A stretch of 14,325 nt of DNA, taken from the NCBI GenBank assembly GCA_963675745.2, contig CAXXWX010000025.1, forward strand, positions 1 through 14,325, read 5' to 3'. The notes under the pieces are model-generated. The model did not search any database, was not told the origin of the DNA, and was given only the letters and a program-made list of their open reading frames with translations. Numbering within the stretch: the stretch's first letter is position 1; each line of letters begins with the position of its first letter. Shown one piece after another: positions 3 to 14,325 of the stretch. Origin of the DNA: Phycisphaerae bacterium. Its GTDB lineage: Bacteria; Planctomycetota; Phycisphaerae; UBA1845; Fen-1342. The position numbers and the translations under genes were made by a program.

Positions 3-578
3 AAGAAGACCATCGACGAGAAGCTCGAGCCAACCTTGGAACGATCCGCGGCCAACAACGCCCGGCGCCGACGGCGTAACAAGGCCGTGGCCAAGAAGAT
101 GAATGAGCGCAAAGAGGCGGGCCAGAAGTGGAAGGATGATTACGGCGACCAGCCCGAAAAGCACCCCGGCGGTCAGCGCGAGGACGTGCGCGCCTCACTG
201 GACCATATCAAGCAGTGGGCCGAGCAGGTAAAGGCCCAGATCGAACCCCTCCAGCCGCAGGGCGCGCAACACATCAAGGATCTGACGCAGGTCGAGACGT
301 GGGCCGGTGAATTGCAGGGCCAACTCGACGCCCAGACGCAGCCGGCGATTGACGCCGCCAAGCAATCCGGTCAGACCGGCGTCGCCCACGCGCGCGCGAC
401 GAGGGACAAGATCGAGAAGTTCCTCGAGCAGGCCGAAACCGACGGGAACGAGTCCCGGGACGTGTTTAACCGTTGGACGCTGTACAACAACAAGCTGGCG
501 ATCGAGTGGGCCAAGAGTGACAGCGCGCCGCATCGCCAGTGGGCGCAAACCTGGTTTGATACGTGGAAGCAGAAATAA
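3..578 (+). CDS. Hypothetical helical/coiled-coil protein, 5'-truncated (C-terminal ~190 aa)
   Basis: The frame is open from position 3 (KKTIDEKLEPTLERSAANN...) to TAA at 576-578, so the true start lies outside the window. GC3-biased codons; Q/K/E/A-rich helical sequence; co-oriented with the downstream genes. Confidence 0.75.
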   Translation, partial: KKTIDEKLEPTLERSAANNARRRRRNKAVAKKMNERKEAGQKWKDDYGDQPEKHPGGQREDVRASLDHIKQWAEQVKAQIEPLQPQGAQHIKDLTQVETWAGELQGQLDAQTQPAIDAAKQSGQTGVAHARATRDKIEKFLEQAETDGNESRDVFNRWTLYNNKLAIEWAKSDSAPHRQWAQTWFDTWKQK

Positions 579-635
579 CATGCGACGAAATGCCGGCGCA
601 GCGCCGGTAATCGTGGCGTTGTCGGAGACATCGCA

Positions 636-3600
636 ATGAGCGCGCTCGGTTTCACTCCCGCTGATTTGGGCACGATGCTCGATATGCTGCTCGACCCGTC
701 CATGGCGCGGCCGGTCAAGATCTTTGTCGAGCGGAAAAGCGGCAATATCTGGCGGATCATCGACCCCTTGAGCCCCACCGAGAACATGCCGGTTATCAAG
801 GAGTGGACCGAAGAGAAGACCGTCACTGAGTATGAGGAGGCGGAGTACGAGTGGGAGAAAAAGGAAGAGAAGGCAACCAAGAAGACCATTTCGGTCCCCC
901 TCGGATTCCCGGCGGATGTGTTGGTCGACTACTTCCGCTTTGACCAGCCGCGGGCCAGTTGGGCGCTGTCCGACTATGACCGGGCGTTCAGCTCGTCCAG
1001 CGCCCCCACCGACATCCCGCGCCGACTACAGGACGCCATTCAGCAGCGTCTGCCGAACGGACAACCGCTGCCGGCCAATATCACGCAGACGATTCTCCAG
1101 TTCGGACACGCGGATATGTGCGCCTCGTTCGAATACAACCACAGCCTCACGCATCGCCGCAACCAGGCCGTCAAGCGCGTGGTTGAGCGCGCCGGCAGCA
1201 CACCGGCGTACTTCAGCGATGGCGGACGCATACACGGCCTCGTGCCGTGCAGCGACTTCAATCCGACCAGCGGGCCAAACGCACACGAGCGCGCCGCGGA
1301 GGCCAGCGCCACCGGGGCGGCCACCAACCCGTCGGGCGGTCCGGACGGGAACCGCGACAATCGGCGCGTCGAGCTCTATGTCCTCCATGACTACAACGAC
1401 CGCGACAGCGAGATTACAAAGCTGATCAACCAGGTGCGCAGCGAGTTGAAAGACGCGCGCGGCATCAGCGATACCGAGTGGCCGGCGGGCAAGTTCCCGT
1501 GCGACCCGAGCAACATTTCCGTCTGTCACAAGCTGCTCAACTGCGCGCCCAATGAGTCCAATGCCGGGGGAACCGGGTCCAGCTATCGCCAGTGCGAGTT
1601 CTACACACGGTTCACGCGCGGCGTGAACGTCCAGCTCCAGGTCGAGGCCGAGCAAACCAAACCCGGCAAGGTCACCTACACCAAGAAGCTCGTTAAGGAA
1701 GCCAAGGAAACCAAACGCAAGGAAGTTCACGGAGAGTATCACCCGCCGCCCGGTGAACATTACGGCTTCTACATGGATGAGATGGTCAAGCACGGCGTGA
1801 AGTGCACGCAAGGCTATGCGCCCGAGATCGCCGTCGCCCCCAACGACGAAGAAGACCCCGAAGACTTCAATCTGATAAAGCCCGGCCCGATCAAGGTCGT
1901 GAAGATGGATGTGGGCTTCTGGGGTGACGAGCGCAAACGCGACAGCGGACGCAAGGCGGGTTTTCGGCGGGAGCCGGCGCGCACGTTCGGCGTGGTCGAA
2001 GGCCCGTTCGTCTGGCTCTGCTACTTCGGGACCGACGACAACAACGGAAAAGGCAAGGGCAGTGATCCGGAGAAGAATGAGAAGATCCACCCGCTCTTCA
2101 CGCGCTTCGTCAACGCCGTCGAAGACGCCGGCCACAAGGTCCGCGTGATGAAAAAGGCCGTCGCCGAGGCCGGCCCGAGTGAGGACAAGCTGCGGCTGTT
2201 CTTCGGCGACATGCACCTGCCGCGCGCTTTCGATGTGAAAGACGCCGACTATTCATCCGGCAAATGCAGCAAGAGCGAGCAGATGCTCAAGAGCCTGCTG
2301 CTGGACATGCTGCGCCAGGACTACCAGTTGCGGGCCTCACAGACACCCTGGCTCGCCGCGGATGACCGCCTGCGCTGCTTGGAATTCTTCGAGCATGGGG
2401 CCAAGAAACTCAAGCTCCCGCACTGGAACTCGGCACGCAAGATCAGCAACCCCTTCGAGCCCGAGGGCTCCAACTGGCTCGCCAAGGCCGGCGACGCGGT
2501 CAAGAAGAGCATGCAGGTGCTGCGCCAGTTCGGCTATTACATGTTCGAGTTCACGCAGGATGACTTGCGCCGCGAGGTAAAGCGCTTCGCCGGGCAATAC
2601 GCCGATCGCGGCCGCGGTCGCACCAAGGAGGTGTTGTCGAACTGGTTTTACGGGTTTGAGACCGACCGCAATATCATGCCGGCCGACTCGAACCAGCGCA
2701 AGACCGATCCGAAACAGCTCATCCCCGGACCGATTCGCGAGATCCTCGAGAAAGCCGAGGTGCTCGAGGGTGAAGAGACCGGCACCAAGCCGGCGGAAGA
2801 GCGCTGGGACAAGATCGATGCCGGCCCGGCACGCGACCTGTTGCGCCTGTTGAAAATCGTCGACGACCAGAACAAGGAACACGGCCGTTATATCAGTGCC
2901 TATCACTGCGGCGACATGTTTGAAACCTGGGCCAATCGGCGTTACCTGTTCGAAGATTTCGAGAACACCGACGACCCGTCCGGCCAGCTTCCCGACTTTA
3001 TAAACTCGGTCGTCAAGGCACTCGAGTTTGGCGAAGCCGGCAGCGCGTTCCGCTCACTGGGTGATGGCCTCAAGGCCATTCTGCGCACGCTGTTGGGCGG
3101 CATGAACGCCGGCGATATCGACCTCTGGCACCGGCGCGAGGTCAAGAAACGCCTGCCAACCGGCCCCCTGCCGGACGAGACAACGCACGAGATCAAGATG
3201 CCTGACGTTGACAGCCTCAAGCTGCCCACGATCAGCGATCCGTCCGCCGAGATCAGCGGCGTCGTGCCCTACCAAAAAGGCTCACGCAGCGGTCTCACCA
3301 AGGAGAAGATGGGCGGAGCACCGTATGTGTCCGCGGAGATGGGTAAGCGCGTCGAGCAGATTCTGGCTTTCAAAGCGCCGCTCAGAGAAGACGAGGCCGG
3401 CCGCGCTGAAGATGTGGAATTGCTCGGCGGCGCCGTGGACGGAAATGACGGCCTCTGGAACAAGGCCATTGACGCCGCTCTTCGCAAGGCTGATCTGCAC
3501 GGCGTCTATGGAAATCACGATTGCTATCGCGGTCTGCACGGCGGCAGGTTCGAACCCTATCGCACCGAACGAAACCTGTGGGTCGAACACGCCCACCGGT

Positions 3601-4277
3601 ACGAAGACTCGAACGTCGACGGCCAGCCGTTTGGCGCGTTCACAACGAACCTCTGTTTCGAAATCATGGAGATCGCGCTGTACGAGGGCCTGCTCGACGA
3701 GTACCTGCTGCACCGCGAGCAGAACCAGTATCAGCCGGGGATCATGCAGTGGTTCCTGCTCACCGAGTTTCAGGAGCAGCTCGACAAGCTGAAAGACAAG
3801 GGTGTCGAGCCGTTTCGCGTCGCGGTGTGCGGCCACACACACATGCCGGACCTGATCGTTGCCGAGATCGTCTACCGCGAGAAGGAATCGACCGCCCTGG
3901 GGTGGATTACCCATCTCGCCTCGATCGCCAAGGTCATCGCCGCCCTGATTCCACGCATCATCGAGTGGGCCGAGAAGTGGGACCAGCGCTACGGCGATGA
4001 CAAGGGCGGCTGGAGCAAGTGGTTCGATGATACGGTCGATGACACCGGCGAGTTCTTCAAAGGCGCCGGTGAGAAGACCGCCAATTGGGCCGGTGATTTC
4101 ACCGGCGGCATCGGTGAGTGTCTCGAAAAGGCCGGTGATTTTCTGAAGAAGACCGGCGAGGGAGCGCGCAAGAAGCTGGAGAATGAATGGGATCGGGTCA
4201 AGAAGGACACCAAGCAGCATGTCGATCGAACCAGGCGAACCATCGATCGCACGATGCGTAACTTCCCGTTCCCGTAG
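636..4277 (+). CDS. 1213-aa multidomain protein: OmpA-like domain + calcineurin-like metallophosphoesterase + amphipathic C-terminal tail; candidate T6SS/CIS cargo
   Basis: GGAG RBS before ATG636. OmpA_C motifs: FRFD(100), GHAD(157)..YNHSLTHRRNQAV, NRRVE(242). Metallophosphoesterase motifs: DMH(525-527), GDMFE(759), GNHD(959), EHAH(984-987), GHTH(1066). No signal peptide. Confidence 0.85.
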   Translation: MSALGFTPADLGTMLDMLLDPSMARPVKIFVERKSGNIWRIIDPLSPTENMPVIKEWTEEKTVTEYEEAEYEWEKKEEKATKKTISVPLGFPADVLVDYFRFDQPRASWALSDYDRAFSSSSAPTDIPRRLQDAIQQRLPNGQPLPANITQTILQFGHADMCASFEYNHSLTHRRNQAVKRVVERAGSTPAYFSDGGRIHGLVPCSDFNPTSGPNAHERAAEASATGAATNPSGGPDGNRDNRRVELYVLHDYNDRDSEITKLINQVRSELKDARGISDTEWPAGKFPCDPSNISVCHKLLNCAPNESNAGGTGSSYRQCEFYTRFTRGVNVQLQVEAEQTKPGKVTYTKKLVKEAKETKRKEVHGEYHPPPGEHYGFYMDEMVKHGVKCTQGYAPEIAVAPNDEEDPEDFNLIKPGPIKVVKMDVGFWGDERKRDSGRKAGFRREPARTFGVVEGPFVWLCYFGTDDNNGKGKGSDPEKNEKIHPLFTRFVNAVEDAGHKVRVMKKAVAEAGPSEDKLRLFFGDMHLPRAFDVKDADYSSGKCSKSEQMLKSLLLDMLRQDYQLRASQTPWLAADDRLRCLEFFEHGAKKLKLPHWNSARKISNPFEPEGSNWLAKAGDAVKKSMQVLRQFGYYMFEFTQDDLRREVKRFAGQYADRGRGRTKEVLSNWFYGFETDRNIMPADSNQRKTDPKQLIPGPIREILEKAEVLEGEETGTKPAEERWDKIDAGPARDLLRLLKIVDDQNKEHGRYISAYHCGDMFETWANRRYLFEDFENTDDPSGQLPDFINSVVKALEFGEAGSAFRSLGDGLKAILRTLLGGMNAGDIDLWHRREVKKRLPTGPLPDETTHEIKMPDVDSLKLPTISDPSAEISGVVPYQKGSRSGLTKEKMGGAPYVSAEMGKRVEQILAFKAPLREDEAGRAEDVELLGGAVDGNDGLWNKAIDAALRKADLHGVYGNHDCYRGLHGGRFEPYRTERNLWVEHAHRYEDSNVDGQPFGAFTTNLCFEIMEIALYEGLLDEYLLHREQNQYQPGIMQWFLLTEFQEQLDKLKDKGVEPFRVAVCGHTHMPDLIVAEIVYREKESTALGWITHLASIAKVIAALIPRIIEWAEKWDQRYGDDKGGWSKWFDDTVDDTGEFFKGAGEKTANWAGDFTGGIGECLEKAGDFLKKTGEGARKKLENEWDRVKKDTKQHVDRTRRTIDRTMRNFPFP

Positions 4278-4371
4278 CCGGATGCTGTGCCACTGCTCTT
4301 GAGCAGTGCCGTAGTGATCGTGGAGCGCGGGTGCGTATTGACCGCACGGCCCGCCGATACGGAGGTGCATC

Positions 4372-4734
4372 ATGGCGCAAGCAGTCGTAAATACCGCGGT
4401 GATGCAATGTACGTGTGGCAGCGCGCCGGCCACACTGACGGTTACCAGTCAGGCCCAAACCATGATCGGCAACCAGCTCGCCGCCACCATCATGGACTTC
4501 GCCACCGGCGCGAATATCCCCCCGTTCGGCACGTGCTCGGTGCTCACCGCCGCCGCTTCCGGCGTGCCGACGCCGTGTGCGATGGTTCCAACCGGTCCAT
4601 GGATACCGGGCTCGACGTCGATAGTGCGGATCGGAAACTTTCAGGCACTGCTGAGCACGGACAAGCTCATGTGCGGAATCCCCGGCATGATCAGCATCAC
4701 CTACCCCGGCCAGGTAACGACGAACGATACATAG
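4372..4734 (+). CDS. DUF4280 family PAAR-like spike-tip protein
   Basis: GGAGG RBS at 4361-4365. Sequence matches the DUF4280 pattern (MQCTCG..P..L, ATIMD....NIPPFGTC, PTPC....PWIPG, L...KLMC...G.ISI..PGQ); 120 aa with conserved Cys. Confidence 0.92.
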   Translation: MAQAVVNTAVMQCTCGSAPATLTVTSQAQTMIGNQLAATIMDFATGANIPPFGTCSVLTAAASGVPTPCAMVPTGPWIPGSTSIVRIGNFQALLSTDKLMCGIPGMISITYPGQVTTNDT

Positions 4735-5425: not shown

Positions 5426-8400
5426 TTAATCCGATGTGTCGCCGTCAACGAACTCCCAGTTGACGGCACCAACGGCATCGAGGTCGAAACCGGACGCCTG
5501 CTGACCAGCGCCGAGTGAGCTGGAGCCGCGGAGACGGATGTACCGGATGCCGGAGTAACCGGTTGGCGCCAGATCGTACGAACGACCGTTCTCGTCGTTG
5601 TCGAACTGTTCGTCACCGCCAACACGAACCACAGGCGCCTCGGTGTGCTTGACGCTCACAAACGTCGAGCCGTCTGTGCTCACCGCCACGTGTAGTTGGT
5701 GGAATTCCCCCGGTCCATGGTCGCACTCGTAGACGTTGAAATCGGGGCCCGGGCCATCGATCACCCGCCTGGCGTCGAAATCGAAAACGACGTATCCGTC
5801 AGCGAGCCCCCAGGAAATGTCGTCGGGTGGACCTGTGAACACGCGGTTCAGCCCTGCCGTCGTATTCTCGCGGAGAATCCCGGGGAACGGGCCACTTGTC
5901 GGCGTCTCCCACACAGGCAACAGGCAAGCGTGCGGCGGCGGCGGCGCGCCGTTCTGCCCCGCCGCGGGCGGTTCGAAGTGAGTCAGCACGATCTCGCCGT
6001 CCTGATGGGCGAGTTCACACGTTCCGCCGGTGGCCAACTGCAGCGGGGATGACGCGTTTTCAAACCGGCCCGTGACCTCGTTCGCCGAGAGGACGACGAA
6101 TCGGTCGTCGTAGCCGGGCGGGTTGTCCCCTTGGATCCAGACTTCGAGCTCGCCTCCCAACATCGCTGAACCATCAACGCGGACATGGCCAACGAGCGGC
6201 GGCGCGCCTCCTGCAATGACAATCCGCAGCGAACCGCCGTCGATCGCCAAGTCGCCGTGGATTTCGATGTTTCCAGGCGAACACGCCGCAGTGAGCACAC
6301 CGCCGGCGATCAAGAGGTTCCCCCGGACGAGTCGCGCGCCGACAACGCCGTCTTCTACGGCAAGCGTTGCCCCATCGTGGATGGTCAGAACCTCAGCCGC
6401 TATCTGTCCGCCCCGCAGACGCACGACGCCATGCGGCCAGATGAGCATTTCATGTTCTACGACAAATGTCGCTCCGTTCTCGACGCGCAGCTCAGCCGCG
6501 CCTCCGGCGCCTTCCGCCTTACCGCCGATTGCACACGTCGCCTTGGTTCGCCACACCGTTCCGGGATCAGCGACGACGACGATCCCGCTCGATCCCTCCT
6601 CCTGGGCCATCGTTGCCCATACGCTTTCCACGCGAGCGCCGTCGTCGATATGCAGTTCGCCCGCCCCGTATCTGCCGACCGCCAGACACGCATTGACGAT
6701 ACAGGTCGCGTTACTGCCGCGTAGCTGGGCCGTTCCGCGAATCCCGGGCTGATCGCCCAGCAACACGCCGCTACGTACAAAGCACTTGGCGTTGTTGATT
6801 TCGAGCTTGGCGTTTCCCTCGCGGCCAACGAATATCGTTCGCGTGGTTCGCACCATGGAACTGTCGTCGTTCACCGTCAGGGTGCCGGTGCCGTCTCTCT
6901 TCAGCCCCAATTGGATGTTGTGAGCCTGCAGCGTGCCCCCGTCCGCGACCGAGATGACGCCGATTCCATTACAACCGACGTCGAGATCGCCCCGGACCGC
7001 CAGAGACGCGCCGCCGCCGGAAACATCCAGCTCCCCCCGCGCCCCGCGCTCCGCGCCGAGTACGCCGTGACTTGATGACGCGAGCGCGTTGTCGTGAATC
7101 TCCAGACGGCCGTGATGGCGCTGGCCGATGACGAGGTTGTTGACGCCAAGCACCGTGTCTTCACCGCGAACTGCGACTCGACCTGGCGCGCCCAGTCCCA
7201 CGCGCAAGTTCTGGGCGCTTACACGAGCGTGCGGCCCGAGGGTGAGATTACCAGGGCCTCCGTCACCCACGTCGAGCGCGTCGGCGATTGTCCATGTCGC
7301 TCCCGACTCGACGATGCGCGCTTCTCCGCGCGCGCCGAAGCCGGACCCGAGACCGGCGGACGCGCATTTGACCTTCCCACCGTTCTGAACCGCCAATCGG
7401 CCGTCCGCGCTGCAACCGATCTTGAGATCGCCATAAACCTCCAGGCACTGGTCGTTAGACACCACGACACTCCCGGGGTGGCGTCCCCGGTCGTGCCCAA
7501 TCCCCAAGCTGCCAGCGAACACAGTCTCGTCGCCCAACCCTCTCAGCAAGTTGATCTGAAGAAACTCGCGCTCGGGAAGTGTCGCAGGGACATTGTCCCC
7601 CAAGATCGCGATATCGACGCTTTGCACACCCTGGCCGCGCTGTTCGATGCGGAATTGCTGCTGATACGAGGACCACCAGCCCAGTGCCGTGCGGACACCA
7701 ACTGTGAGCAGAAGGGCCAACAGCATCGCCCCTAGGAGAACGCTGCTGCCGTGTCGCCGGATTCGCTTGCCCAGCACATAGGTTAGCGAAGGCGGTTTCG
7801 CGCGGATCGGCTCACCCGCGAGGACGGCGTTCAAGTCGAACGCCAGCGCATCGGCGTCCGCGTAACGCCGCGCGGGGTCGGCATCTATTGCCTTGGAGAT
7901 AATCGTCTGCAAATCGTGCGGCGCGCCTGAATTCGTTCGGCGGAGCGAAACTACCTGCCCGCGTTCGATCTCGCGCAACAACGCTGACGTGCTCTTCCCG
8001 AGAAACGGCAGTTCGAGCGTCAGGGCGTGATAGAGCGTCACGCCCAGGCCGTACACGTCTGTCCGCCCGTCGAGCTTCTCCTGCTCGCCGCGCAACTGCT
8101 CTGGGGCCGCGTACGCCAACGTGCCCACGAACTGCCCCGGCTCGGTTACTTGCGTGCTCGCAGTGTCCCGTGCCAAGCCGAAGTCCGAGAGCAGCGGGGT
8201 GCCATCGCGTCGCAGAAGAATGTTCGACGGCTTTACATCGCGATGCAGCAGCCCCTCGCGATGCACCGCCGCCAGTGCCCGCGCCAGCGCGACGCCCAGT
8301 CGGCAGATGTACACGACGTACGAGGCGTGTTCTCGCAAATCGGTCTCAGATGCGTCCAGAAACGCGCGCACGTCCGGGATCGAAGGTTGCCGCGGGCTGG

Positions 8401-8956
8401 ACGAGCGTTGGTCGCTTTCGTGGTTATCGCTGCGGCCATTCTTCCTCCCGTATTCCTGCCGCAGGTGCTCCAAAAGATCGGCGAGCGAGCGACCCTCGAC
8501 CCACTCCATCGCGTACGCGTAGACACCGCCTTCGTCGACGACATCGTGCACGCTGACGACGTTTGGGTGCCGCAGCCGCGCGATTGCGCGTGCTTCGATC
8601 CGAAACCGTTTCCGGGCAGCGGCAGACTGCGCTACGGAAGTCGGCAGCAGCTTCAACGCCACCGGCCGATCCCCGAGCCGTTCCTGCTGTGCGAGGAAGA
8701 CCGTACCCATGCCGCCGCGGCCCAGCTCGCCCAGCAGCGTGTAGCCCGGCACCGCCGGCAGGCTGTGCGAGGCGCCAACCGCGACCTGTTGGGCCAACCA
8801 GGCCAGTTCCTCGACCTGCCCCAGCAGGTGCGCATGGTCGGCCGCCAGCTCGGCGCAATCGACCGGTCTACCTTCTTCCAGGGATGCTACGATCCGGTCG
8901 AAGACCTCGTCGAGGAAATCCTGGTCGTTCGCTGGGCTCGGCTGGCTTTCGGCCAC
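5426..8956 (-). CDS. Membrane Ser/Thr (Hanks-type) kinase 1 with an extracellular T5SS/PEP-CTERM-associated-repeat beta-helix and a C-terminal beta-sandwich domain
   Basis: Kinase motifs GRGGMG, VALK, HRDVKPSN, DFGLAR, GTLAYAAPEQ, DVYGLG. TM helix SSVLLGAMLLALLLTVGV. About 6 repeat units (LxVGxxGxGxLxIxxGG / LGxxxGxxGxxxVxG). Start placed at GTG8956 (AGGAG at 8964-8968; aligns with the kinase 2 N-terminus) rather than 9070, which overlaps the sigma gene. Confidence 0.92.
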   Translation of the reverse strand: MAESQPSPANDQDFLDEVFDRIVASLEEGRPVDCAELAADHAHLLGQVEELAWLAQQVAVGASHSLPAVPGYTLLGELGRGGMGTVFLAQQERLGDRPVALKLLPTSVAQSAAARKRFRIEARAIARLRHPNVVSVHDVVDEGGVYAYAMEWVEGRSLADLLEHLRQEYGRKNGRSDNHESDQRSSSPRQPSIPDVRAFLDASETDLREHASYVVYICRLGVALARALAAVHREGLLHRDVKPSNILLRRDGTPLLSDFGLARDTASTQVTEPGQFVGTLAYAAPEQLRGEQEKLDGRTDVYGLGVTLYHALTLELPFLGKSTSALLREIERGQVVSLRRTNSGAPHDLQTIISKAIDADPARRYADADALAFDLNAVLAGEPIRAKPPSLTYVLGKRIRRHGSSVLLGAMLLALLLTVGVRTALGWWSSYQQQFRIEQRGQGVQSVDIAILGDNVPATLPEREFLQINLLRGLGDETVFAGSLGIGHDRGRHPGSVVVSNDQCLEVYGDLKIGCSADGRLAVQNGGKVKCASAGLGSGFGARGEARIVESGATWTIADALDVGDGGPGNLTLGPHARVSAQNLRVGLGAPGRVAVRGEDTVLGVNNLVIGQRHHGRLEIHDNALASSSHGVLGAERGARGELDVSGGGASLAVRGDLDVGCNGIGVISVADGGTLQAHNIQLGLKRDGTGTLTVNDDSSMVRTTRTIFVGREGNAKLEINNAKCFVRSGVLLGDQPGIRGTAQLRGSNATCIVNACLAVGRYGAGELHIDDGARVESVWATMAQEEGSSGIVVVADPGTVWRTKATCAIGGKAEGAGGAAELRVENGATFVVEHEMLIWPHGVVRLRGGQIAAEVLTIHDGATLAVEDGVVGARLVRGNLLIAGGVLTAACSPGNIEIHGDLAIDGGSLRIVIAGGAPPLVGHVRVDGSAMLGGELEVWIQGDNPPGYDDRFVVLSANEVTGRFENASSPLQLATGGTCELAHQDGEIVLTHFEPPAAGQNGAPPPPHACLLPVWETPTSGPFPGILRENTTAGLNRVFTGPPDDISWGLADGYVVFDFDARRVIDGPGPDFNVYECDHGPGEFHQLHVAVSTDGSTFVSVKHTEAPVVRVGGDEQFDNDENGRSYDLAPTGYSGIRYIRLRGSSSLGAGQQASGFDLDAVGAVNWEFVDGDTSD

Positions 8957-8981
8957 GCGCGGACTCCTGATATATCCCCCA

Positions 8982-9674
8982 CTAGTCAGGAGAGGATTCG
9001 GGCCGCCGTGTGCGCGCCGTCTCCGCCGAATGGCGTTCCGAGAGAGGCACTGAGCGGCTCGCAAGAACACTGGTCAGCCGACGGCGGTACGCTTCGGCGC
9101 CAGCCCGGAAGCGGTGTCGTACCGCGGACCGACCCAGGCCGAGTCGTTCGGCGATGTCGTCGATCGTCAGTTGCTCGAAGAGGCGCAAGTGGACGACCTC
9201 GCGCGTCTCGGATGGAAGGGACTCTAGCGCCGCGCGCATGCTGCAGGCCTGTTCCGCGTAAATCGCAATCTGGCTGGGTGTCGTTGAACCGACCGGCCCG
9301 GGGAATTGGTAGCCGTCGTTACCCTGCGAATCTTGCGTCGACAGCGACGAGAAGAGCAACGGCGTGCCGTCGCCGCCGCGCTTCAGGGCGCGTAGCCGGA
9401 CCGCCGTATCGCGAATCCGCCGATCGGCGACAGTGAGCACCCAACTGCGGAACGCCTTGAGTCCGCGCCACTCGCATCGCGCGCGGTCGCGCCAGACGTG
9501 CAGCAGCGTCTCCTGCCAGAGGTCCTCTGGGGTGAATTCCCGCCGCAACGCCGCGCTCATGCGCGATTCGATTACGACGAGAATCGACGCTGGGCCGATT
9601 CCTTCGATCAGACGATCCCAGACGGCGGTTGAATCGCTCTGCAGCGGATTCTCGGCGTCCCCAGCCACGAACAT
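8982..9674 (-). CDS. ECF sigma-70 factor, planctomycete kinase-associated type
   Basis: Sigma2 region (TPEDLWQETLL..W, FRSWVLTVADRRIRD), TPSQ linker motif, sigma4 region (ALESLP...REVVHLR...LTIDDIAERLGLGRSAVRHR). GGAGG RBS at 9678-9682; 25 nt upstream of kinase 1. Confidence 0.92.
   Translation of the reverse strand: MFVAGDAENPLQSDSTAVWDRLIEGIGPASILVVIESRMSAALRREFTPEDLWQETLLHVWRDRARCEWRGLKAFRSWVLTVADRRIRDTAVRLRALKRGGDGTPLLFSSLSTQDSQGNDGYQFPGPVGSTTPSQIAIYAEQACSMRAALESLPSETREVVHLRLFEQLTIDDIAERLGLGRSAVRHRFRAGAEAYRRRLTSVLASRSVPLSERHSAETARTRRPESSPD
8989..9000 (-). promoter_or_regulatory. Copy of the shared motif core (CGAATCCTCTCC) upstream of kinase 1, inside the 3' end of the sigma gene
   Basis: Plus strand GGAGAGGATTCG. 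The upstream half of the motif is poorly conserved in this copy. Confidence 0.45.
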
Positions 9675-9870
9675 GGCCCTCCGCGGGCAGGCTTCCAGCC
9701 CGCTGATCCGTCCAGGATACCAAAACGGACGTGATCAATCCACGGTACGCCATGTCGTCAATCCCCGGGCCGCTTGGGTGGCGAGGAACCCTCTCCGCAT
9801 TCGCCGGGCCGTGCTATGGCCCCAGCACCCCCACCCCGGAACGAATGTCTGGGAGTCGCGCGATTCGAGG

Positions 9871-9898
9871 AAAAAGCCCACCTGGGGGAGGTGGGCTT
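9871..9898 (-). terminator. Intrinsic terminator of the secreted dockerin-like protein gene
   Basis: Perfect 10-bp inverted repeat AAGCCCACCT/AGGTGGGCTT with a 5-nt loop, ending in a run of 5 U on the minus strand, ~30 nt after the stop codon. Confidence 0.8.
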
Positions 9899-9925
9899 GG
9901 AGGGGGGTTCAGGTTGTGGGGTTAA

Positions 9926-10786
9926 TTAGTTGGGGCAGCCGAAGTCCGGCGCGAAGATGGCGAAGTCGAGCAAGTCGACTACGTCGTCCGAGTTCAGGTC
10001 GCACGCCGGATCCCATCCGGGCGTGCCGGAGTTGGAGCCGAGCGCGGGCGCAAAGAGTCCGAAGTCGGACACGTCGGAGTCTCCGTCGCCGTCGACGTCT
10101 CCGGGGCAGTCCGGCGGCGGGGCGTAGCCGCCCTCCGAGGTGACGACGAGTTCGACGCCGGGATCGGGGCTCGAGAACTCGATGGCCGCGGTGTTGTAGG
10201 CGTTCGCGTACGTATCGGGACCAGAGGCCCTGACGTGGGCCTCAACTCTGAAGACGACCGGCGTTCCCGATTGGTAGTTCGCGATCGTGTGCGTGAGGGT
10301 CCCGGAGAGGGTCTGATGCTGGCCGAATGTCGCCGCCGAGGCCTCGTCTATGTTATGCCAGCCCCCCCCGTCCCGCCAAGAGGTCTGGAACGATGCGCTG
10401 GCATACTGGGAGCCCCCGTGAACCTCCGCGTGGTAAGGCACTTGGATCTGCAGCGTGAACGTCCCGGTTGGATTGGCCAGGTTCGTGACAGTGTACGTGT
10501 CCCACACAATGCCGAAGGTATCGAGCGCAATGCTGCCCTCCCAAGCACAACGAAGCCGGAGAGTCCCGAACTGGGTCGACGCCACGGCGTCGTTATTCCA
10601 GGGGGCGTCGCTGTAGTGCAAGCCGTCTAGAGCGACGCCCTCACCTCCGTCCGTTGTGTCACGGCCGTAGTCACCACCGTTCGCACTCCTCCAGGCCTCA
10701 ACCTCGGCGCCAAAGACCACCTGCGCGTGCGCCTGAGCCGTGTAGCAAAGAAGACCCATAATCGTCAGAAGTTGGATGCGTTTCAT
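9926..10786 (-). CDS. Secreted protein with a beta-rich N-domain and a C-terminal planctomycete dockerin-like (Ca-binding) domain
   Basis: Sec signal MKRIQLLTIMGLLCYTAQAHA|Q; PPP linker; duplicated Ca-loops CPGDVDGDGDSDVSDF and CDLNSDDVVDLLDF..F...FGCP (9929-10108); AGGAG RBS at 10796-10800. Confidence 0.88.
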   Translation of the reverse strand: MKRIQLLTIMGLLCYTAQAHAQVVFGAEVEAWRSANGGDYGRDTTDGGEGVALDGLHYSDAPWNNDAVASTQFGTLRLRCAWEGSIALDTFGIVWDTYTVTNLANPTGTFTLQIQVPYHAEVHGGSQYASASFQTSWRDGGGWHNIDEASAATFGQHQTLSGTLTHTIANYQSGTPVVFRVEAHVRASGPDTYANAYNTAAIEFSSPDPGVELVVTSEGGYAPPPDCPGDVDGDGDSDVSDFGLFAPALGSNSGTPGWDPACDLNSDDVVDLLDFAIFAPDFGCPN

Positions 10787-11016
10787 AGTGCTCGTCTCCT
10801 TCTCGATGCGCTTGATGCGCCGATGACGTTCGCCGATCCCGGGCCGAGCGTGTTCGTCGGGGGGGCGCCCAAAGCGGGCGAACCCCCGGTCGCGGATCCC
10901 GGGCGAGCCTCGCCTCCGATTCGTACGGAGAACCCATGCTCATCTCAACCGACATTTCCCATTTGACCTCCACCCGGCGAGTGCGCCACAACTGCTCGTC
11001 GGGGCCCTATCGAGAT

Positions 11017-11044
11017 GGAGAGGAATCGAGTTGCGGAAGCGCCG
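11017..11044 (-). promoter_or_regulatory. Putative ECF promoter CGGCGCT-N13-TCCTCTCC for the secreted dockerin-like protein
   Basis: Matches the copies at 13815-13842(-) and 14046-14073(+) in both halves and in spacing. Confidence 0.55.
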
Positions 11045-11090
11045 ACAAAATCCGCAAATTCGCCGGCGCCTCTCAGTTTTGGGTGCCCAG

Positions 11091-11124
11091 AAAGCCCCGT
11101 AGCCCGCCCGGCGGCCCGCGGGGC
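11091..11124 (-). terminator. Possible weak terminator after kinase 2
   Basis: GC hairpin GCCCCG...CGGGGC followed by UUUCU on the minus strand, ~100 nt past the kinase 2 stop and just upstream of the next putative promoter. Confidence 0.35.
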
Positions 11125-11223
11125 AAAGTGGTTATGACAGGTCGCGGGGCCCTGCGGCTGAACGGCAGGCGTCCCGCGATCGACGAGTGGCACGCCCGCC
11201 TTGGACGGCTGCGGCGCCCTGGC

Positions 11224-13782
11224 TCAGTGCCGGCCGAGGATGCGTTCAGTCAGCGCGCCGAGTCGCTGTCGCGCCGACGCGATGGCGCGCACCGCGTGGA
11301 CGCCGGCGACGGGCCAGGGTGACACCAGCGCCGTGGCGTAGCAGTTCTTAATCCAGGGTGGGGCGTCAAGCAGCGGCGCGCCGTTCCAACAGGTGTAGCC
11401 GGCGTAGTTCGCAAAGGCGATGCGCGCCAGGGAGCCGGCCGAGTCGCCGCACGGTCCCGTGTAGACCTCGTGGGCCAACACTCTTGGAGTGACTGAAGAC
11501 GGAGGCAGAGTATCGACACCCAACCGGCAGAGGATCCAAAACAACGACGCGAGGGGCTTTCCGCTGAGCGGCTGATCCAGCGCGTTTCGCAGCGTCTGCC
11601 AGCGCTGTGTGGGCGTCAGTTCCGCCCACCACCGCGGCGCGACGCGCCAGAACCCGTGGCGGGCGCGCTCGTAGCGGTATGCCCAGCCGGCGGTCCCGTA
11701 CCGGATCGTCGCGGCGGCCCAATCTCCCTGTGACTCGAGGTACTCGGCGTAGCGGCAGGATGCAACGATAGACCCAGGCACCTGCCAGATGGCGACGGCG
11801 TCGGCCACGCGACCGGTCGCCGCGTAGAGGTCCGCCCGCACCCGTCGCAGGCCGGCGGTGTCGTCAAGCCCCGGCATCGCCTCAGCACGGTTAAGCAGCG
11901 CCTCGGCCCGCTGAACGTCGCCACATTGAAACGCGGCATCCGCCAGCGCGACGTGCAGGAAGCCCGCTTCCGGAAACGCCTGACAGGCGTCCCGCAGTCG
12001 GGGGTACGCGCGCTGCGGCTCGTCACGGGCCAGGTAGATGAAGCCCAGCGCGCCTTCGACCAACGGATCCTCTATGTCCCGCTCGTCGTACTGCCCCCAG
12101 GCAACCAGGGCGGTCTGGGCGTCGTTGAGGACGTATGCCAGCAGACCCAGGGCACGCAAGTCCACATCGTCGGCCCCAGCCAGGTCATCGGAGAGCGGCA
12201 CCGGCGGCATTCCCGGACCGGTTGACCACGCACCGGCGAACTCCGCCGCATGCGGCGCCTGACGCTCAAGCTCGCGCAATCGCTCCGGCGACGGCTGCCC
12301 GTCCGCCACGATGTCGCGGGCGATTTCAACCGTTAGCCGTTCTCCGTGGATGGACGCGTCGAACGGCGCCATTTGCTGCGCGCGAGCATAGTGCGTCAGG
12401 GCTGTGCGAATGAAGTCCTCGCCGGGGCCGTCTGGTATCGAGTCGCCGCGCGGCGCATTCCAGAGCGTCGCGGCAATCATGTTGTCTGTCATTCCCGGCC
12501 GCAACAAGGACAGCCGAGCTTCGCGCACATGCTGAGCCACCCAGCCAGGCGCCAGGAACCAGTAGATCACAACGAGCGTCGCCAACGCGAGGGCCACCAC
12601 GCCGCCGGCGATCGCCCCGAACAACGACCGGCGATTGCGGCGGGCCGCCTTGGAAATGTGCGTCAGCAGGCCGGCAGGCCGCGCGCGGATCGGTTGCAGG
12701 CTCAGCAGCCGCTCGAGATCGTCGGCAAGCTCATTCGCCGTGGCGTAGCGCCGCGCCGGATCAGCATCCATGGCTTTCGACACAATCGTCTGTAGTTCGG
12801 TCGGAAGCCGCGGATCGCGCTTACGCAAGGGGGGAACCGCACCGCGCTCGATCTGGCGCAGCACCTCACCGGGCGTGTCGCCGGTCGCCGGGAACTCAAA
12901 CGACAACGCGTGGTAGAGCGTGACGCCCAAGGCGTAGACATCCGTGCGCGCGTCGAGCTGAGTGGTCTCGCCGCGCAGTTGCTCCGGAGCGGCGTAGGCC
13001 GGCGTTCCGAGGAAGTGGCCGGCGTGGGTCAGCGTCACATGGGCGACATCGCGCGCCAGGCCGAAGTCGCTCAGCAGCGGTGTCCCATCGCGGCGCAGCA
13101 GGATGTTCTGCGGTTTGACATCGCGATGCAGCAAGCCAGCCTGGTGCACCGCGCCGAGCGCCCGCGCCACGGCGATGCCGATACGACAGATGAACATCGT
13201 GTACGTGCCCTGCGCCAGTTCGTCCGGCGGCGAGTCGAGGTATTCGCGGACCGCGTCGGGGCCGCGCTGCGCGGCCGGCAGCGCCCTCAAGTGCTCGATC
13301 ACGCTATACAGCGAAACGCCGTCGATGTACTCCATGGCATAGGCGTGGACCTCGCCGGAGTCGACCACGTCATGAACCGCGACGATGTTCGGGTGATTCA
13401 GCCGGGCGATCGATTCGGCTTCGGCGCGAAAGCGCTGGCGGGCAAAGCGCGACAAAGCGAAGGCTGGCGGCAGCAGCTTGAGCGCCACGGCGCGGTTGCC
13501 CAGCGACTGCTGCTGGGCCAGGTAGACGGCCCCCATGCCGCCGCGGCCCAGTTCGTGGAGGATCGTGTAGCCCGGAATGTGCGGCGTGGCGCGCGGCGGC
13601 CCGACCGCGACCTGCTGCGCGAGGTGCAGCATCTCCTCGATCTGCGGCAGCAGCGTCTCATGACCGCGCGCCCACTCCCCCACATCGAGCGGCGCGCCCT
13701 CCTCGATCCGCGACACGGCTTCGTCGAAGACCGCGTCGAGGAAGGCCTGATCCGCGCTGGCTGGCGGTTCGTCGGTGCGCAT
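11224..13782 (-). CDS. Membrane Ser/Thr (Hanks-type) kinase 2 with a TPR-like extracytoplasmic domain
   Basis: Kinase motifs GRGGMG, VALK, HRDVKPQN, DFGLAR, GTPAYAAPEQ, DVYALG. TM helix LFGAIAGGVVALALATLVVIYWFL. TPR-like helices (ALGLLAY..ND...A, ALGFIYL......RA, ALADAAFQCGD..RA). Start ATG13782 chosen by alignment with kinase 1; ATG13803 is an alternative. Confidence 0.92.
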   Translation of the reverse strand: MRTDEPPASADQAFLDAVFDEAVSRIEEGAPLDVGEWARGHETLLPQIEEMLHLAQQVAVGPPRATPHIPGYTILHELGRGGMGAVYLAQQQSLGNRAVALKLLPPAFALSRFARQRFRAEAESIARLNHPNIVAVHDVVDSGEVHAYAMEYIDGVSLYSVIEHLRALPAAQRGPDAVREYLDSPPDELAQGTYTMFICRIGIAVARALGAVHQAGLLHRDVKPQNILLRRDGTPLLSDFGLARDVAHVTLTHAGHFLGTPAYAAPEQLRGETTQLDARTDVYALGVTLYHALSFEFPATGDTPGEVLRQIERGAVPPLRKRDPRLPTELQTIVSKAMDADPARRYATANELADDLERLLSLQPIRARPAGLLTHISKAARRNRRSLFGAIAGGVVALALATLVVIYWFLAPGWVAQHVREARLSLLRPGMTDNMIAATLWNAPRGDSIPDGPGEDFIRTALTHYARAQQMAPFDASIHGERLTVEIARDIVADGQPSPERLRELERQAPHAAEFAGAWSTGPGMPPVPLSDDLAGADDVDLRALGLLAYVLNDAQTALVAWGQYDERDIEDPLVEGALGFIYLARDEPQRAYPRLRDACQAFPEAGFLHVALADAAFQCGDVQRAEALLNRAEAMPGLDDTAGLRRVRADLYAATGRVADAVAIWQVPGSIVASCRYAEYLESQGDWAAATIRYGTAGWAYRYERARHGFWRVAPRWWAELTPTQRWQTLRNALDQPLSGKPLASLFWILCRLGVDTLPPSSVTPRVLAHEVYTGPCGDSAGSLARIAFANYAGYTCWNGAPLLDAPPWIKNCYATALVSPWPVAGVHAVRAIASARQRLGALTERILGRH

Positions 13783-13814
13783 CGTGCGTGTCCCAATCGA
13801 CATCTTACTGCGTT

Positions 13815-13842
13815 GGAGAGGATTTCGTGGCTGTAACCGTCG
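13815..13842 (-). promoter_or_regulatory. Putative ECF promoter CGACGGT-N13-TCCTCTCC(AAC) for kinase 2
   Basis: The upstream heptamer, spacing and trailing AAC are identical to the divergent copy at 14046-14076. Confidence 0.6.
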
Positions 13843-13923
13843 CGTCGTCTGCGATATTCGATGCGGGCACCGACATGACGGCTGCCTCGAACGTGTGGCG
13901 AGCTCGGCCAAGCCATCCCGAGA

Positions 13924-13960
13924 CAGCGAGATTCTCGCTCGTCCGCAGCGAGAATCTCGC
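13924..13960. repeat. Tandem palindromes GCGAGAWTCTCGC, 22 bp apart, also forming a perfect 14-bp inverted repeat
   Basis: cagcgagattctcgc (13924-13938) and cagcgagaatctcgc (13946-13960); 13926-13939 is the exact reverse complement of 13947-13960. Confidence 0.85.
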
Positions 13961-14045
13961 AACTCCGGTGCCGCCGTAAGCTCCGCATTGTAAACTAGTT
14001 ATGCGCTGGAATCGCGCGTGCCGACTTCCATTTGCATCACTTCTT

Positions 14046-14073
14046 CGACGGTCCGTGGCCGGCATTCCTCTTC
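14046..14073 (+). promoter_or_regulatory. Putative ECF promoter CGACGGT-N13-TCCTCTTC(AAC) for the downstream secreted protein
   Basis: Near-identical to the kinase 2 copy, on the opposite strand, ~70 nt upstream of ATG14142. Confidence 0.6.
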
Positions 14074-14141
14074 AACTGACAGGGACACGCGCACTGCAAG
14101 TCGGTGCGCGATGCTTCCGCACTTCCCGAGGAGGAGACGTC

Positions 14142-14325
14142 ATGTCTCGGATGGACCATGTCCGTATGGTAGTCCGCCTGTCGATCGCGCTGAGCACGGC
14201 CGCGGCCGCGCTCGCCGCGAGGGTCGACCTGTATCTGACCGTCACGGAACAGCCGGATTCGTCGTCCATTTGGACGCTGGAAGCCAGCACGTCGGCCGGG
14301 GATAACGACGGGCTCGCCGGCTACA
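14142..14325 (+). CDS. Secreted protein, 3'-truncated (not in the ORF track)
   Basis: Strong RBS GAGGAGGAG at 14128-14136. Open to the window end: MSRMDHVRMVVRLSIALSTAAAALAARVDLYLTVTEQPDSSSIWTLEASTSAGDNDGLAGY..., with a signal-peptide-like N-terminus (ALA cleavage motif) followed by beta-strand-like sequence. Confidence 0.75.
   Translation, partial: MSRMDHVRMVVRLSIALSTAAAALAARVDLYLTVTEQPDSSSIWTLEASTSAGDNDGLAGY

Follow-up and report, generated by a model that had tools for sequence, protein, structure and literature searches.

The window analysed here, a stretch of 14,325 nucleotides (nt) from a Phycisphaerae bacterium, is the entire contig C25 of a 5.2-Mb assembly (G000; 91% complete, 6% contaminated). 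It carries a gene for an extracytoplasmic function (ECF) sigma factor, two genes for Hanks kinases, two genes for secreted-type proteins and a bipartite motif that recurs before the kinase and secreted-protein genes. The original prediction took this motif for a promoter that defines a local ECF regulon, and we have followed it through the window, its genome and related loci. The genes concerned are the following:

8982..9674, minus strand: ECF sigma factor, 230 amino acids, sigma2 plus sigma4 (Pfam Sigma70_r2, r4_2 and Sigma70_ECF; alignment)
5426..8956, minus strand: kinase 1, Hanks kinase with a hydrophobic segment and an ectodomain with T5SS/PEP-CTERM-associated repeats, 1176 amino acids, catalytic motifs intact
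11224..13782, minus strand: kinase 2, Hanks kinase with a hydrophobic segment and a TPR ectodomain, 852 amino acids
9926..10786, minus strand: secreted-type protein, 286 amino acids, signal-peptide-like N-terminus, weak C-terminal dockerin-I match
14142..14325, plus strand: 5' end of a secreted-type gene, signal-peptide-like N-terminus, no family match

The sigma factor fits the definition of a group 4 ECF (sigma2 and sigma4 only, ~200 amino acids) and its matches among solved structures are ECF sigmas. In the alignment, the STTPS linker is conserved and the tail is variable; the core of the motif is written in the codons of this tail. Kinase 2 is 56% identical to kinase 1 over ~400 amino acids, and no anti-sigma candidate was found among the called genes of the window. 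The dockerin-like protein scores 19.5 bits against Dockerin_1, under the cut-off of 22.9; its Atlas neighbours are hypothetical proteins of Planctomycetota in which 15-42% of the members have Dockerin_1. The gene at 14142 is truncated by the contig end after 61 codons.

Four motif sites in the window

The four motif strings are present where they had been described, in 13842-13812 (-), 14046-14076 (+), 11044-11017 (-) and 9000-8989 (-), and they define the following sites:

8989..9016, minus strand: site 1, before kinase 1; core TCCTCTCC at 8996-8989, degenerate -35 block at 9016-9010; predicted start ~8980
11017..11044, minus strand: site 2, before the dockerin-like gene; CGGCGCT-N13-TCCTCTCC; predicted start ~11008
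13815..13842, minus strand: site 3, before kinase 2; CGACGGT-N13-TCCTCTCC; predicted start ~13806
14046..14073, plus strand: site 4, before the gene at 14142 and divergent from site 3; CGACGGT-N13-TCCTCTTC; predicted start ~14081

The core TCCTCTYC has only four copies in the window, all of them at these sites, when 0.80 would be expected from the 291 copies found genome-wide (Poisson p ~0.009), and the strict bipartite pattern has four matches in 5.2 Mb, three of which are inside the window. As this pattern was defined from the window's own sites, it was tested on other genomes, and a scoring matrix was built from 52 foreign sites with the window excluded. With this matrix, the sites before kinase 2, the dockerin-like gene and the exoprotein gene at 14142 rank first, second and third in the whole genome, and the kinase 1 site is 35th of 175. 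No cluster of better sites was found elsewhere in the genome, which agrees with the regulon being local as first proposed. The best sense upstream site outside the window (C28:108664, minus strand, 19.9 bits) lies 37 nt before a lipoprotein-like gene and could be a distant target or a chance match. An additional weak match at +9789, where the spacer is 14 nt long, is not directed towards any gene and was treated as chance.

The kinase 1 core sits within the ECF coding sequence, whose last codons read E-S-S-P-D-stop, and in both kinases 32 nt separate the end of the core from the start codon. The description of the kinase 1 site as "core only" proved accurate, since its -35 block, taken at the standard spacing, reaches -1.3 bits.

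Some other features of the window should also be mentioned. Upstream of the dockerin-like gene, a Shine-Dalgarno sequence and an ATG at ~10955 (region 10955-10786, minus strand) are out of frame with it; a G-run at 10859 is one base shorter in one low-depth contig of run X2, which by a hand count would restore the frame and may be a sequencing error. The two runs listed consist of contigs from a single sample that cover most of the window, and transcription starts cannot be read from them. A protein of 1213 amino acids with no family match is encoded at 3-4734 (+), adjoining a DUF4280 gene that we take to be PAAR-like; this neighbourhood looks like contractile-injection or type VI-type cargo and is unrelated to the motif.

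Conservation of the motif in the clade

We retrieved 118 loci with relatives of the window ECF, of which 112 have an ECF with its stop codon and 94 of these 112 have a kinase directly downstream (+1). After dropping six loci without an ECF match or stop, 18 without a kinase match, six near-duplicates and two loci with a frameshifted or read-through ECF (L097 and L105), 86 non-redundant foreign junctions of Planctomycetota type were kept, and 52 of them passed the training cut-off. The relatives come from metagenome-assembled genomes (MAGs) labelled Phycisphaerae, Phycisphaerales or Planctomycetota, some with automatic Planctomycetaceae or Planctomycetales labels and a few unclassified. Close orthologues of the ECF (54-57% identity) are present in six genomes of a sample of 60 relatives and in none of three genomes of the same genus. 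The same ECF-kinase module with the motif was also seen in a MAG labelled Candidatus Eisenbacteria (L052).

In a de novo search, TCCTCT was the most over-represented hexamer at these junctions (34 of 86, with 2.6 expected); the other strong word, TTCCGC, derives from the conserved coding end of the ECF. When the sequences were anchored on the core alone, a CGRCGSW block emerged at -20 to -14, together with an A/T-rich patch at -26 to -24 and purines at +16/+17. The leave-one-out score of the -35 block exceeded 2 bits at the fixed spacing in 36 of 52 sites and in 0-6 of 52 at eight other offsets. The architecture that had been proposed, two conserved blocks with a spacer of fixed length and variable sequence, is found across the clade. 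The position of the kinase 1 site, at the 3' end of the ECF gene, is the one conserved in the clade, although the -35 block of this particular copy is degenerate.

The repeats could have been passive relics of a local duplication, or a by-product of a Ser-Ser-Pro peptide conserved at the C-terminus of the ECF. The two kinases are indeed paralogous with their cores in register, and many ECF homologues end in xSSP. However, 14 of the 52 junction cores are located past the ECF stop, and in-frame cores write Ser-Ser as TCC TCT in 19 of 37 cases, compared with 21 of 4222 Ser-Ser pairs genome-wide. The constraint therefore acts at the level of DNA, as the core persists outside coding sequence and uses rare codons. 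Moreover, the two blocks have been retained although neither the flanks nor the spacers are related, and a search with hidden Markov models (HMM) gave no signal of an ECF remnant upstream of kinase 2, where only the stop position matches the commonest one (14/52 junctions against 6/291 genome cores). We consider this explanation very improbable.

The motif is also found further downstream. On the 3' side of the kinase start, the best sense match exceeds the best antisense match in 47 of 60 loci, and scores of at least 16 were reached by 23 sense and no antisense matches. These matches concentrate 2.0-2.75 kb from the kinase start. When second cores were picked blind to the upstream block, a -35 block stood at the standard spacing in 19 of 36, and at other offsets in 0-5. 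A second site was found in 42 of the 68 loci with enough sequence, 13 of them past the kinase stop and 29 within the kinase open reading frame (ORF). The genes or segments that follow mostly begin with a signal-peptide-like stretch, as judged by eye, and seven of nine products scanned match BNR, beta-helix, Ig, Kelch, laminin-G or dockerin families, some of them below cut-off. In one locus (L024, G019:C3), dockerin-like exoprotein genes form an array downstream of the kinase, and two of them carry their own copy of the motif.

A different role for the core might be played in RNA. TCCTCTCC is complementary to a purine-rich Shine-Dalgarno sequence, so that the core could have an anti-Shine-Dalgarno function, in which it would base-pair with the ribosome-binding site (RBS) downstream and silence read-through transcripts. 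In the window, each of the two exoprotein sites does form a stronger pairing with its own RBS (-18.3 and -13.2 kcal/mol; 14/16 complementary) than with any of 68 foreign ones. The pairs involved are 11024-11009 with 10807-10792 (minus strand) and 14066-14073 with the RBS at ~14128-14135, and they are not clade-wide. Across homologues, pairing with the own RBS was no better than with swapped ones (p 0.20-0.93), so that a clade-wide anti-Shine-Dalgarno role is not supported, and it would leave the upstream block at its fixed distance without explanation. As the main function of the motif we regard it as highly unlikely, and a secondary role at the two exoprotein leaders of the window may exist.

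The reading factor and the proposed circuit

Several observations link the motif to the ECF of its own locus. Among the 47 Hanks kinases of the genome, only the two of the window score above 10.2 upstream, and no ECF gene of this genome scores above 10.1. The junction motif is absent from two other kinase-linked ECF clades (0 of 20 and 0 of 5 loci), and among more distant ECFs one of 12 had a score of 14.8. One of those two clades, with a member in the same genome (L146:3235-3846, contig C17) and others at L150-L169, has ECF stops that overlap the kinase start and an upstream bipartite motif of its own (GAAGCG in 10 of 20, then a CGCTT-like block), which is likely an autoregulatory promoter. 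A promoter behind the sigma gene as a general layout was consequently rejected, given the overlapping genes of this clade (20 loci) and the lack of a junction motif in both clades.

The motif also varies together with its locus. When sites were chosen with the three variable columns of the core masked, both sites of a locus had the same core variant in 23 cases out of 27 (13.97 expected), and non-canonical variants matched in six against 0.63; on a quick tree, the six loci are spread over about five distinct positions. Todor et al. (PMC7776599) tie RpoE Lys56, Asn84, Ser172 and Phe175 to bases -12, -13/-12, -34 and -32, respectively. Counted along the AlgU and SigW alignments, these positions are ECF residues 59, 89, 187 and 190. 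At residue 89, D or E pairs with C at core +2 in 67 of 71 sites, and Y or R with G in 5 of 5; at residue 190, R pairs with G at -19 in 60 of 71, and G or A with A in 5 of 6. Residue 187 also tracks base -19, and residue 59 is top-ranked for core +3 at the junctions. This tracking between sigma residues and bases suggests that core +5 is likely the flipped -10 base and +15/+16 likely the start. A pyrimidine-purine step occurs at +15/+16 in 11 of 13 non-coding second sites, against 1-5 at other positions, and at the expected start in all four sites of the window.

Instead, these genes might be co-regulated by some other factor that binds the motif, be it another sigma or a transcription factor. 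The genome has 32 ECF-like genes, and two tandem palindromic 22-nt repeats at 13924-13967, between the divergent sites 3 and 4, hint at another regulator whose operator they could be. However, the motif is tied to the loci of this clade across many genomes, its variants change jointly within a locus and with the residues of the local sigma, and it is absent from the other ECF-kinase clades, all of which makes a foreign factor improbable. Overall, the reading as an ECF promoter passed the tests of clade conservation, spacing, strand bias, kinase specificity (absence before the 45 other Hanks kinases), covariation within loci and start step, the covariation with sigma residues implicates the right positions in few independent lineages, and we conclude that CGRCGSW-N13-TCCTCTYC is very probably a -35/-10 promoter read by the neighbouring ECF.

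Before the ECF genes themselves the motif is nearly lacking: it scores at least 13 in one of 80 upstream regions of the clade, and the best score for the window ECF is 5.0. These regions have TATAAT in 9 of 84 (0.6 expected) and 37 TATAAT-like hexamers in sense orientation against 12. Two features lie upstream of the ECF gene in the window:

9714..9722, minus strand: sigma-70-like extended -10 (TGG TATCCT), from sequence
9869..9894, minus strand: terminator-like hairpin with a T-run, 3' of the dockerin-like gene; inverted repeat, fold -17.2 kcal/mol

A scan for the full sigma-70 consensus gave no sites in 8900-14325, and the hairpin is absent from the list of the terminator scan. Lying between the dockerin-like and ECF genes, the hairpin would shield the latter from read-through. 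Judged from these upstream regions, the sigma factor is not autoregulated and any feedback would not run through its own gene. Its likely targets would be both kinase genes and both secreted-protein genes, excluding its own.

The circuit that we propose is as follows. The ECF gene would be transcribed at a housekeeping level from a housekeeping promoter. A membrane Hanks kinase would sense an outside signal and phosphorylate the sigma factor, probably in the conserved STTPS linker, this place being favoured because the acidic residues of sigma2.2 are retained. The active sigma would start transcripts 15-16 nt past the first T of the core, kinase levels would rise, with the kinase and not the sigma as the route of positive feedback, and secreted surface-type proteins would be made. 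In the window the kinase would be duplicated, kinases 1 and 2 feeding one sigma through different ectodomains. The activation of the sigma by the kinase is inferred by analogy with EcfK. We estimate the probability of the whole proposal, in which the motif is the promoter of this ECF and the kinase drives positive feedback, at about two in three.

Some features of the kinases bear on this proposal. A hydrophobic segment is found near residue 360-450 in all 42 kinases listed. More than 200 amino acids of the region that follows the kinase domain in kinase 2 are shared by 60 of 87 clade kinases, whereas the ectodomain of kinase 1 matches only one other, over 146 amino acids. It is kinase 2 (TPR type), not kinase 1, that resembles the usual partner of the clade. 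From this comparison, a receptor seems to have been duplicated, and a new ectodomain to have been put beside the sigma.

A number of points weigh against the proposal. The kinase 1 site, with its poor -35 block, may be weak or dead. At 34 of the 86 junctions the motif falls below the training cut-off, and high-scoring matches also occur inside coding regions (14 antisense and eight sense among 94). In an exact-pattern census of 61 genomes, those without this ECF had 0-3 scattered matches, and among ECF carriers, G010 and G017 had their sole exact match away from the ECF locus and G035 had none; this census is too noisy for a test of presence or absence. By a quick tree in which 23 of 47 inner forks stay open, each variant involved in the residue covariation arose in about two lineages. 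Residue 190 is also top for core +2, which shows shared ancestry, and base -19 is one position off the base that Todor et al. assigned to Phe175. The pyrimidine-purine step shows no enrichment at those junction sites that have no stop codon in that place (18 of 32, with 12-18 elsewhere). Finally, with an acidic sigma2.2 retained, the activation logic of EcfP is not directly transferable.

This last point also bears on an alternative in which the motif is the same ECF promoter and the kinases are outputs or brakes, the sigma being active when unphosphorylated and the induced kinase phosphorylating other targets or shutting the sigma down. In the clade alignment, D51 is kept in 87 of 87 sequences and E50 in 79 of 87, so that binding to the core enzyme may need no phosphate, and the kinase regulation of ECF217 is described as unclear (PMC7826278). 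Conversely, the STTPS linker is near-invariant (T132 in 84 of 87), and phosphorylation of the linker activates EcfK (PMC13147305). The called genes of the window include no anti-sigma candidate, and if the sigma were made constitutively and left unregulated, the ectodomain of the kinase would have no part to play in the circuit. We regard this alternative as unlikely and favour activation of the sigma by the kinase.

In relatives, a further layer could be added to the circuit. Among the 29 second sites within the kinase ORF, 25 are in the kinase frame, and 20 of these are followed by a Shine-Dalgarno sequence and an in-frame ATG, in 18 cases exactly 63 nt past the core. After this ATG come a signal-peptide-like stretch and then a variable domain. 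The 20 loci, which may descend from one fusion, are L029, L030, L032, L036 (example segment L036:12932-14989), L044, L048, L049, L051, L054, L055, L060, L067, L072, L075, L076, L084, L102, L117, L118 and L124. Unfused kinases, kinase 2 among them, have a C-terminal tail with which the sequence surrounding the internal start can be aligned; this sequence also has synonymous variation, suggesting that the long form is likely translated too. The motif, Shine-Dalgarno sequence and ATG together predict a nested secreted isoform of the C-terminal domain of the kinase. By its gene layout the window is the split form, without the nested arrangement, and nhmmer found no match at the dockerin site to a relic of the relatives' internal cassette. 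A receptor-amplifying switch can tentatively be imagined, though it is somewhat less likely than not, in which the promoter in the tail of the sigma gene induces only the kinase, and its nested copy in the kinase ORF of relatives frees the ectodomain as a secreted protein, like soluble receptor isoforms. If true, membrane-bound and secreted forms from one ORF would be unusual, and gene callers miss such a start.

Comparison with known systems

The many kinase-linked ECF sigmas of Planctomycetes have promoters listed as "not conserved" in the reference classification, and their regulons are hence unknown. Thirty new planctomycetal ECF groups reportedly go back to Wiegand 2020. For the present clade, such a listing is likely explained by the promoter lying behind the sigma gene and not before it. 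In the literature searched, no paper was found to describe the motif, nor a secreted isoform nested in the gene of an ECF-linked kinase; TCCTCT and "Phycisphaer" were not found in the available supplement text of PMC7826278, and the available part of PMC7671368 holds nothing on promoters.

The systems closest in logic are the ECF43 pairs EcfP/PknT of Vibrio parahaemolyticus and EcfK/PknS of Xanthomonas citri, which share with the clade an ECF and an adjacent transmembrane Hanks kinase without anti-sigma, as well as Ser/Thr in the linker between sigma2 and sigma4 (PMC8999054, PMC13147305). EcfK also requires phosphorylation of the linker (PMC13147305). However, ECF43 members are without the acidic DAED motif (PMC8999054), whereas the clade keeps E50-D51 and so departs from the non-acidic sigma2.2 of ECF43. 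Besides, they belong to another phylum, and the targets in the clade would be the kinase and secreted proteins. The motif offers a ready reporter with which activation by a Hanks kinase, and its site, could be tested in a sigma whose DAED-like acidic patch is retained, and the natural variants of sigma and promoter offer testable specificity swaps.

Kinase-linked ECF groups are established (PMC7826278). ECF59 and ECF217 have a kinase at +1 with one transmembrane segment, as in the clade (94/112 loci), and ECF59 has a longer linker (~10 amino acids), comparable to the 157 profile positions of the clade against the 145 residues of SigW. TPR-fused kinases occur in ECF59s2, and dockerin and TPR neighbours in ECF217s1 (all PMC7826278). 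ECF59, ECF217, ECF61 and ECF62 were described from Planctomycetales, Rhodopirellula and Pirellula (PMC7826278), and the clade comes from MAGs whose labels are Phycisphaerae or Planctomycetota, with some automatic Planctomycetaceae and Planctomycetales labels among them. No conserved promoter motif is reported for ECF61, 62 and 217, and for ECF59 only "TC in -35" (PMC7826278), whereas the clade has a clear motif 3' of the sigma gene start. Against TIGR02984, used as a proxy for the group models, the window ECF scores 65.5, below the cut-off of 183.75.

Finally, the local non-autoregulated ECF regulons of Todor et al. (2020; PMC7776599) share with the clade the few linked targets, the 16-18 nt spacer and the pyrimidine-purine step at the predicted start. 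In those regulons the specificity depends on the Asn84, Lys56, Ser172 and Phe175 positions, whose equivalents are also implicated in the clade. Their motifs were mined upstream of ECF genes, whereas the predicted promoter of the clade lies in the ECF 3' end and, in relatives, within the kinase gene.

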